A program made the translations under genes and the position numbers. From an uncultured Eubacteriales bacterium (lineage in GTDB: Bacteria > Bacillota > Clostridia > Lachnospirales > Anaerotignaceae): a stretch of 64,000 bases of DNA. The stretch covers positions 3,502 through 67,501 of the forward strand of contig CAKQPE010000001.1 in the NCBI GenBank assembly GCA_934256695.1. The letters are read 5' to 3'. Shown here in pieces: positions 50,365 to 51,079 of this stretch (within the stretch, counting starts at the first letter, position 1; every line of letters begins with the position of its first letter). Below the pieces are notes generated by a model. It was not told where the DNA came from. It ran no database searches and saw only the letters and a list, made by a program, of their open reading frames with translations.

Positions 50365-51079
50365 AAGACCTTGAGACTCTGTCTCAAACTCTGCAATTTT
50401 TTGAAAAAAATTGAGTAAAACTTTTATTAAAGCCTATGACGTAGTCATAGGCTTCAGACTGTAGACAAAGTTATTTTATAAAGCGGAAGGGTTCGGGAAA
50501 CGAATGGGTTTCCCGAATGGAATCCGCAGTCGGAATTCATTTCCGACGAGGAAAACAGCAGGTTTCAAGGCTTTTAAGCCGATGGAACCTGTCTGTTTAT
50601 TCTTCTGTTTGAACAAGTCGAAATCCTGATTTCGACTTAGGTGTCGACTTTGTCGACACCCTCAAGTCTATGACGCAGTCATAGGCTTTTCGTTAACTAT
50701 AAAATGTGGCAAACCGCAGGTTTGACGGAAGGGTTTTAAAGCCTTCTCTCAGGAGAAGGTGCTGAGCAAAGCGAAGCGGATGAGGGGTAAATCTTGATTA
50801 TCTTTACGTTATTTTTCCCCTCATCTGTCACTTACGTGACATCTTCCCCACCGAGGGGAAGACTAACTATTCCGTCACTTCGTGACACCTTCCCTTTCAG
50901 GGACGGCAAAAAGCAATGCAAAGAAGATTTTGTTCGATAAAGTTTTAAAAAATCAAAATCTCAATAACACAACTTATAATTTTTTTAAGAAAAATGCAAT
51001 GTAATTGCATTTTAATAAAAGTTTTGGTTTCGCTTTTTCAAAAGCGAACAGGGTGTGGGACAGAGTCCCACGGTTTTTT
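50363..51079. repeat. Mosaic hairpin element, long palindromic form with nested X insertion, copy R11
   Basis: Left end: hp1 TTGAGACTCTGTCTCAA 50371..50387, hp2 50394..50413, AGTAAAACTTTT. A hairpin at 50430..50454, X1, and the same hairpin again at 50664..50688 follow. Inverted arms at 50707..50787 and 50817..50907 surround the GATGAGGGG/CCCCTCATC stem. Right end: AAAATGCAATGTAATTGCATTTT, AAAAGTTTT, hp2 51029..51048, hp1 51055..51071. Confidence 0.85.
50455..50663 (+). mobile_element. 209-bp hairpin-rich sub-element X, copy 1
   Basis: Identical to copy 3 (62098..62306) except at the last few nt, and differs from copy 2 (60606..60814, reverse) at 3 positions by eye. Internal hairpins: TTCGGGAAAC/GTTTCCCGAA, TCGGAA/TTCCGA, AACAGCAGGTT.../...AACCTGTCTGTT, GTCGAAATC/GATTTCGAC and GGTGTCGAC/GTCGACACC. 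Confidence 0.85.

Follow-up and report, generated by a model that had tools for sequence, protein, structure and literature searches.

A 209-bp non-coding repeat from an uncultured human-gut member of the Clostridia, referred to here as X, is very probably a non-autonomous MITE of the IS1182 type, whose ends are recognised by a DDE transposase of that family and which would be mobilised in trans. Elements with the same ends encode IS1182-family transposases, and these, together with the IS1182-type termini of X itself, argue that X is a MITE carrying the termini of this particular IS1182 clade; each copy is flanked by direct duplicates of a local hairpin, and strains of the same species that lack X at two of the sites carry one such hairpin in its place.

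Three copies of X and their hairpin flanks

Three copies, each of 209 bp, lie within the window (the whole 64-kb stretch of DNA analysed):

50455-50663, plus strand: X copy 1, a 209-bp probable MITE located downstream of a 742-aa peptidase gene and inserted into hairpin three of a long mosaic repeat
60606-60814, minus strand: X copy 2, present in no lineage but that of the window, with the site empty in contigs of 12 other strains
62098-62306, plus strand: X copy 3, polymorphic among strains

The positions, orientations and near-identity of these copies, first recorded in the first-pass annotation, were borne out by a three-way alignment, with copy-to-copy identities of 98-99.5%; relative to copy 1, a single one of the 209 positions is changed in copy 3 and four are changed in copy 2. 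Exactly three copies and no solo X ends are present in the window. No open reading frame of at least 100 aa was found inside X, no tRNA overlapped it in a scan of the window, and a search of the whole window against Rfam 15 gave no match to X at the gathering score, nor did 50380-50740 give one at E ≤ 1; comparison with annotated plasmids and phages was likewise without a match. Elsewhere in the window, three riboswitches score above Rfam gathering thresholds, for cobalamin (44949-45134, minus strand), glycine (38405-38501, minus strand) and TPP (58237-58335, minus strand).

X is bounded by imperfect terminal inverted repeats that the first-pass annotation overlooked (left CAGACTGTAGACAAAG, right CTTTGTCGACACCCTC), with the left end matching the reverse complement of the right, GAGGGTGTCGACAAAG, at 12 of 16 positions. 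The two ends represent two variant types, TGTAGAC on the left, and TGTCGAC with a terminal hairpin on the right, where the sequence is self-complementary (GGTGTCGAC-TTT-GTCGACACC); most copies have TTT as the loop of this terminal hairpin, which is flipped to AAA in L170 and L177. The main features of the element, given for copy 1, are:

50455-50470, plus strand: left terminal inverted repeat CAGACTGTAGACAAAG; the same sequence forms both ends of two transposase-bearing elements, L143 and L260
50640-50663, plus strand: right terminus, the terminal hairpin GGTGTCGACTTTGTCGACACC followed by CTC, with its outer arm forming the right inverted repeat
50483-50527, 50529-50547, 50553-50598, 50615-50638 and 50640-50660, plus strand: internal hairpins of X in the DNA fold
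50483-50638, plus strand: four internal hairpins whose pairing is maintained through compensatory changes in 12 related MITEs

The description of X as a chain of five hairpins held good, with five internal hairpins folding between the two flank hairpins and a minimum free energy for the DNA of X plus flanks of -70.9 kcal/mol, against -27.6 ± 3.6 kcal/mol for shuffled sequences (z = -12). All five hairpins are retained in a consensus fold of 12 related MITEs (87-100% identity), in which both-sided, pairing-preserving changes occur at 10 of 70 base pairs; because of these compensatory changes, the hairpins are taken to be under selection, and the five-hairpin body might have a role of its own, whether in the transpososome or as 3'-UTR RNA.

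Direct hairpin duplicates stand beside every copy, in agreement with the first-pass annotation:

50430-50454, plus strand: left target duplication of copy 1, 25 nt, a perfect hairpin
50664-50688, plus strand: right target duplication of copy 1, with two transitions relative to the left duplicate
62070-62097, plus strand: left target duplication of copy 3, 28 nt, a terminator-like hairpin on the minus strand
62307-62334, plus strand: right target duplication of copy 3, with two mismatches in the window, one in L112, L114 and L118, and none in L121
60815-60844, minus strand: intact target hairpin of copy 2, 30 nt, a bidirectional terminator between mnmA and a MatE gene
60587-60605, minus strand: remnant of the second duplicate of copy 2, 19 nt left after deletion between two ATAACAAAAATTT repeats

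The 25-nt duplicates of copy 1 and the 28-nt duplicates of copy 3 each contain two mismatches, and in the right duplicates of both copies the loop has changed from GTA to GCA, alongside one transition in the stem. Two of the target hairpins score as terminator-like, and the three targets have no common core sequence, sharing hairpin shape alone. Two smaller features of the target hairpins are recorded here. At 60808-60851, the heptamer CAGTTTG, found upstream of the target of copy 2 solely in the window lineage, pairs with the X terminus CAAACTG and extends the hairpin to a 20-bp stem; the empty alleles of this site have a different, longer sequence at that position. Loops are also flipped between alleles while the stems stay unchanged, the loop of the target of copy 1 being GCA in the window (50664-50688) and TGC in L136 (4726-4986), in the comparison with L136-L138.

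Alleles among strains and the surroundings of X

The species is delimited by its MnmA protein, which has a cluster at 99% and its next relative at 70%, and contigs from other strains were found through exact-protein matches; sites 1 to 3 are those occupied by copies 1 to 3 in the window. Site 3 is empty in six contigs (L111, L113, L116, L117, L119 and L120), where a single hairpin AAGGCACTCAAATCTTACTTTGAGTGCCTT and no X are present, and filled in five contigs as well as in L109 and L123, which belong to the window's own lineage. Empty and filled haplotypes are set apart by linked SNPs, which fits a single insertion event. The filled allele of L121 has a perfect duplication (28/28), with one mismatch in L112, L114 and L118 and two in the window; since the duplication in L121 is still perfect, the mismatches are read as later mutations that carry no signature of mechanism. 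A mutagenic or strand-specific origin of the mismatches, through deamination or a template switch, was rejected on the same series of alleles, and the changes follow no single strand-specific pattern.

At site 2, all 12 of the other contigs are empty, each with a single hairpin AAACCCATAACAAAAATTTGTTATGGGTTT. These empty alleles have a second ATAACAAAAATTT further downstream, so that both ATAACAAAAATTT repeats can be seen, and the shortened duplicate of copy 2 is the product of a later deletion between them; by presence and absence, copy 2 is the youngest insertion. The comparison with X-less loci that the first-pass annotation had put forward gave a single hairpin at both sites 2 and 3, and its claim that the flanking hairpins are target duplications made at insertion is supported by one hairpin in empty alleles and two in filled ones.

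Site 1 has a longer history, with X or a remnant of X in every strain retrieved. The orthologous X of L126-L131 is ∼95% identical to the window copy, the gene beside it differs from that of the window by 2.4% overall and by 3.3% over the last 600 nt, and in L136-L138 most of X is deleted. An old insertion at site 1 explains the diverged duplicates of copy 1, and the identity of the window's site-1 X with the site-3 X of L112, L115 and L121 makes site 1 a plausible donor lineage for the younger copies. Gene conversion was considered for the combination of old-looking flanks and a young-looking body in copy 1, and is unneeded, given the difference of ∼5% from the site-1 ortholog and of 2.4% in the neighbouring gene. 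The earlier view of X as a separate mobile unit, of more recent date than the mosaic repeat around it, is supported.

Long mosaic repeats of this kind occur in many intergenic regions of the window as chains of hairpins, with stems that differ between copies and a layout that is kept:

240-470, 7351-7595, 19438-19672, 26841-27053, 31496-31871, 39068-39651, 50364-50440, 50871-51101, 55840-56347 and 58411-58642: examples of long mosaic repeats

The motif that the first-pass annotation regarded as shared by X and the long elements, the 10-mer CGGAAGGGTT, is indeed present in X and at four ends of long repeats, where it directly follows a variable hairpin (at 111, 39483 on the minus strand, 50726, and 56255 on the minus strand); by rough estimate, a single 10-mer common to two families of a few hundred bases is not, taken alone, significant evidence of kinship.

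A four-gene MacB/ABC-type efflux module (51083-55753) adjoins copy 1 and lies between inverted repeats at 50909-51043 and 55876-56010, its boundaries being inverted copies of the long mosaic repeat; its genes encode a 382-aa protein, an FtsX/MacB_PCD permease, an ABC ATPase and a YknX-like adaptor. The module is missing in other strains of the species (L126-L131 and L136-L138), in which the 93-aa and BPD_transp genes come immediately after the 742-aa peptidase gene. A reading of the 5.5-kb module as a hairpin-duplicating insertion in its own right was discarded, the 'duplicated' hairpin being an internal module of the long repeat itself. Towards the end of the window, a repeat with an 18-nt period (63560-63777) lies inside an open reading frame (63052-63996, minus strand) of a LarC-like (Ni_insertion) gene, where it appears to encode a His-rich tract; the called lengths of this protein across strains are 144, 292, 303, 304, 310 and 314 aa.

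Relatives of X and transposase-bearing elements

A scan for the terminal hairpin of 21 nt, with each species represented by a single genome, returned at least 108 loci, which include, among the matches listed, Anaerotignum, Oscillospiraceae, rumen Clostridiales, [Eubacterium] saphenum and Clostridium paraputrificum/nigeriense. The hairpin forms the end of many short elements whose inner hairpins vary by lineage, and another hairpin usually comes next: among the matches listed, the right end abuts a stem of at least 6 bp in 75 of 106 cases, against 121 of 2180 random control positions, and is followed by a hairpin with a T-run in 35 of 106, against 10 of 2180 controls. Among the matches listed, 23 loci allowed both ends to be delimited, giving elements of 164-406 bp and one of 1533 bp, bounded on both sides by hairpin direct repeats of 19-32 nt that are perfect in 11 of the 23. 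The target hairpins are unrelated in sequence across the three window sites and more than 25 others. Solo GGTGTCGACTTTGTCGACACC hairpins, intergenic and terminator-like, with no element attached, also occur in Anaerotignum and its relatives (L003, L028, L038, L068, L075, L100 and L103), and may be remnants of decayed elements or 'zero-length' elements with abutted ends.

A second search, with a pattern internal to X, identified 113 human-gut metagenome contigs. Hairpin duplications of 24-33 nt flank 20 of the 26 full-length X-like copies on human-gut contigs, at several further sites, and the survey of copies suggested by the first-pass annotation, counted here together with the 23 parsed loci, returned flanking hairpin repeats for most relatives of X. 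The other six copies (L202, L157, L189, L177, L236 and L248) have no duplication, their left and right flanks do not match, and in several the flanks belong to two separate insertion sites; four of the six are at least 98.5% identical to X; three of these four lie on short low-coverage contigs (∼2.2-2.3 kb) and one, L177, on a contig of 30.9 kb. In L202, the left flank is that of window site 3, whereas the right flank belongs to a different known site (L153); mismatched flanks of this kind could reflect chimeric short-read assembly over the 209-bp repeat or genuine recombination of one copy with another.

Transposase-bearing elements with X-type ends identify the family. The 1533-bp element, from an uncultured Clostridium (L033), has X-like ends, a perfect 32-nt hairpin duplication and a 490-aa transposase with the Pfam domains DUF772 and DDE_Tnp_1_6, which scores 431 bits on the NCBIfam IS1182 equivalog NF033551 (cut-off, 270 bits); its transposase-proximal end equals the right 24 nt of X, bar the last base or so, and includes the same 21-mer GGTGTCGACTTTGTCGACACC. 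Two elements on viral contigs encode transposases scoring 432 bits (L143, with both ends CAGACTGTAGACAAAGT, identical to the left end of X) and 445 bits (L144, with X-type termini). An element on the Enterococcus faecalis plasmid pGTC3 (L260) has CAGACTGTAGACAAA at both ends and a 21-nt hairpin duplication, and one on Sutcliffiella horikoshii pBH-BAT-167 (L261) has CAGCTTGTAGACAAAG and a 30-nt hairpin duplication; the RefSeq annotation of both is 'IS1182 family transposase'. The left 15-17 nt of X are thus found at both ends of L143 and L260, and the transposases of these full-length elements are DDE enzymes of roughly 490 aa. Whole hairpins of 21-32 nt are duplicated in three of the full-length elements (L033, L260 and L261); L143 (∼165-1904) and L144 (∼1395-2987) are flanked by two different hairpins with no duplication, which could be the result of recombination between copies or of another insertion outcome.

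X resembles the IS1182-family insertion sequences of Bacillota with termini CAGNNTGTAGACAAAG (pGTC3, pBH-BAT-167) in its end repeats, in its stem-loop or terminator target and in the duplication of a whole hairpin (21-32 nt), and is unlike them in being 209 bp long, without a transposase, made up entirely of hairpins and bounded by two variant end types. Duplications of 19-33 nt at the MITEs compare with 32, 21 and 30 nt at the insertion sequences (L033, L260 and L261, respectively), representing the same target preference and the same type of duplication. Nothing in L033, L143, L144, L260 or L261 corresponds to the interior of X, the termini alone being in common; this weakens the label 'deletion derivative' and leaves 'mobilised by' unaffected. 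A tblastn search with three of the transposases, covering the 64-kb window and ∼150 contigs that carry X or come from other strains, detected no IS1182-family transposase, and the full-length elements come from other genera (Clostridium, Enterococcus and Sutcliffiella) or from viral contigs, the scan of which gave related insertion sequences rather than that of the host. On the strength of the shared ends, X is probably mobilised in trans, putatively by a resident insertion sequence.

The missing host transposase could favour a DDE enzyme of another family with long or variable duplications, such as the IS1202 group or IS1634/IS1549, for which the IS1182-like ends of X would be a coincidence. 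Target duplications of 24-29 bp are made by the IS1202 family, which had served as a lead for X until it was superseded by the direct IS1182 matches. The duplications of IS1634 and IS1549 vary from 8 to 514 bp (PMC2266710). Such an origin is nevertheless highly unlikely, as X is identical to five independent IS1182-family elements over 15-17 terminal bases, whole-hairpin duplications accompany three of the five, and no element of another family with such ends was seen.

Proposed hairpin-directed insertion and its possible consequences

Across 26 elements, the length of the duplication (19-32 nt, median 27) follows the span of the target hairpin (r = 0.85) and exceeds it by 1.6 nt on average. 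Such tracking is incompatible with a fixed enzyme stagger and can be accounted for by attack at the feet of the stem-loop. In the proposed mechanism, the transposase would read the shape of a stem-loop and no target sequence, and its practical targets would be intrinsic terminators downstream of genes. Each 3' end of the element would be joined to one target strand at a 5' foot of the palindrome, with an extruded cruciform as the probable substrate, and gap repair would then copy the whole palindrome on each side, giving a duplication as long as the hairpin (19-32 nt); this chemistry and the positions of the cuts are deduced from the insertion products. With a hairpin surviving on each side, the flanking genes would probably keep terminator-like hairpins, and termination would probably be preserved, which would make insertions tolerable, presumably near-neutral, and allow copies to persist and drift.

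Precedents for several of these steps are published. The IS1182 family has been summarised as inserting with or without target duplication and as using either sequence or DNA structure as its target (PMC12056078), and palindrome targeting by some of its members is attributed to Siguier et al. 2015, as cited in PMC5678879 and PMC4923244. The staphylococcal members IS1272 and TnSha1 resemble X in their DNA stem-loop targets, which are often terminator hairpins and have no primary-sequence consensus (PMC4923244), and the same hairpin has been hit by them repeatedly and independently (PMC4923244, PMC5678879). In the published model, attack at the 3' feet deletes the stem-loop and attack at the 5' feet duplicates all of it (PMC5678879, Fig. 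13, pathway b). With IS1272, the stem-loop is lost or replaced and no duplication results, whereas X and its relatives duplicate it entirely, corresponding to pathway b (PMC5678879); replacement of the IS1272 type was rejected for X, given two hairpins in filled sites and one in empty sites. The first-pass annotation remarked that the duplications greatly exceed the footprints typical of transposases, which is true of most families; for the IS1182 family, stem-loop targeting has been described (PMC5678879, PMC4923244).

Two further readings draw on the hairpins of X. The presence of a hairpin chain with a terminal hairpin, maintained by compensatory changes, would suit single-stranded movement by a hairpin-dependent HUH/Y1 enzyme or hairpin-primed synthesis (IS200/IS605-type PATEs, REP/RAYT or IS91-like elements). 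Elements of the IS200/IS605 and REP/RAYT types insert beside a fixed short motif (a tetra- or pentanucleotide) and are not known to make target duplications or to have inverted termini. The long duplications and inverted termini of X, the lack of a conserved flanking motif, and the DDE transposases, not HUH enzymes, encoded by the autonomous elements with the same ends leave this reading with very little probability. X might alternatively be primarily a structured non-coding RNA or regulatory module spread by recombination, for which the RNA fold is also strong (z = -9.5 and -8.9), compensatory changes affect 10 of 70 base pairs, and all copies lie in the 3' region of a gene. A secondary RNA role may exist; as an account of what X primarily is, this reading is extremely improbable, given that no Rfam family matches even at E ≤ 1, that copies occur in both orientations relative to neighbour genes, and that the element has precise presence/absence alleles with target duplication and transposon-type termini.

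The first-pass annotation had favoured att-site duplication or hairpin-primed copying, neither of which accords with targets lacking a shared core, inverted termini of the IS1182 type, and autonomous elements that duplicate whole hairpins in the same way. Movement by a site-specific (tyrosine or serine) recombinase, with the flanking repeats as duplicated att cores, has almost nothing in its favour beyond a superficial resemblance of the 19-30-nt direct repeats to attL/attR, and is opposed by the hairpin shape that alone unites three window targets and dozens elsewhere, by the absence of any target copy inside X, by the change from one hairpin in empty to two in filled alleles, which denotes duplication and no att exchange, by inverted termini common to DDE-transposase elements, and by the lack of a recombinase associated with X.

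As an IS1182-type MITE, X can be set beside other small bacterial elements. Correia/NEMIS, RUP and bcr1 elements make fixed short duplications of 2-9 bp at short sequence motifs. X is like such MITEs in being small and non-coding, with inverted ends, multiple intergenic copies, target duplication and polymorphism between strains, and unlike them in its structure-defined duplications of 19-32 nt. The REP/BIME-associated elements IS1397 and ISKpn1 belong to IS3 or other families and insert, with short duplications, into the loop of one specific REP sequence; insertion into extragenic palindromes is common to these elements and X, although X accepts unrelated hairpins and duplicates the whole hairpin.

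A broader generalisation, which we consider unlikely although it merits statement, is that transposases of this IS1182 clade read DNA shape alone and attach the element at both feet of an extruded cruciform, with the palindrome rather than the enzyme setting the length of the duplication, and that hairpin-chain mosaic repeats could arise in this way. If so, every insertion would double a terminator; repeated insertion with internal deletion would leave extra hairpins and solo terminal hairpins (compare L136, and the solo GGTGTCGACTTTGTCGACACC hairpins of Anaerotignum); and the 'mosaic' repeats with their chains of hairpins, which fill intergenic regions in this genome, could be built by such a cycle of insertion and deletion.

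Stem-loop targeting by the IS1182 family is already known, and X adds a new MITE to that family. The apparent anomaly of a 25-30-nt 'footprint' consisting of a whole stem-loop is removed, being ordinary behaviour for the IS1182 family, and annotators of gut Clostridia can call such repeats IS1182-type MITEs. X and its relatives provide natural evidence on a poorly studied point, that one IS1182 clade targets DNA structure and that the length of the duplication follows the size of the hairpin, and the X-type duplication forms the counterpart of hairpin deletion by IS1272. Elements of this type break short-read assemblies, with many copies at contig ends and some contigs carrying the flanks of two sites. 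Insertions in terminators duplicate them and so give rise to longer 3' untranslated regions and tandem terminators, and the polymorphism of X insertions among strains of a single uncultured human-gut species means that they could serve as strain markers.
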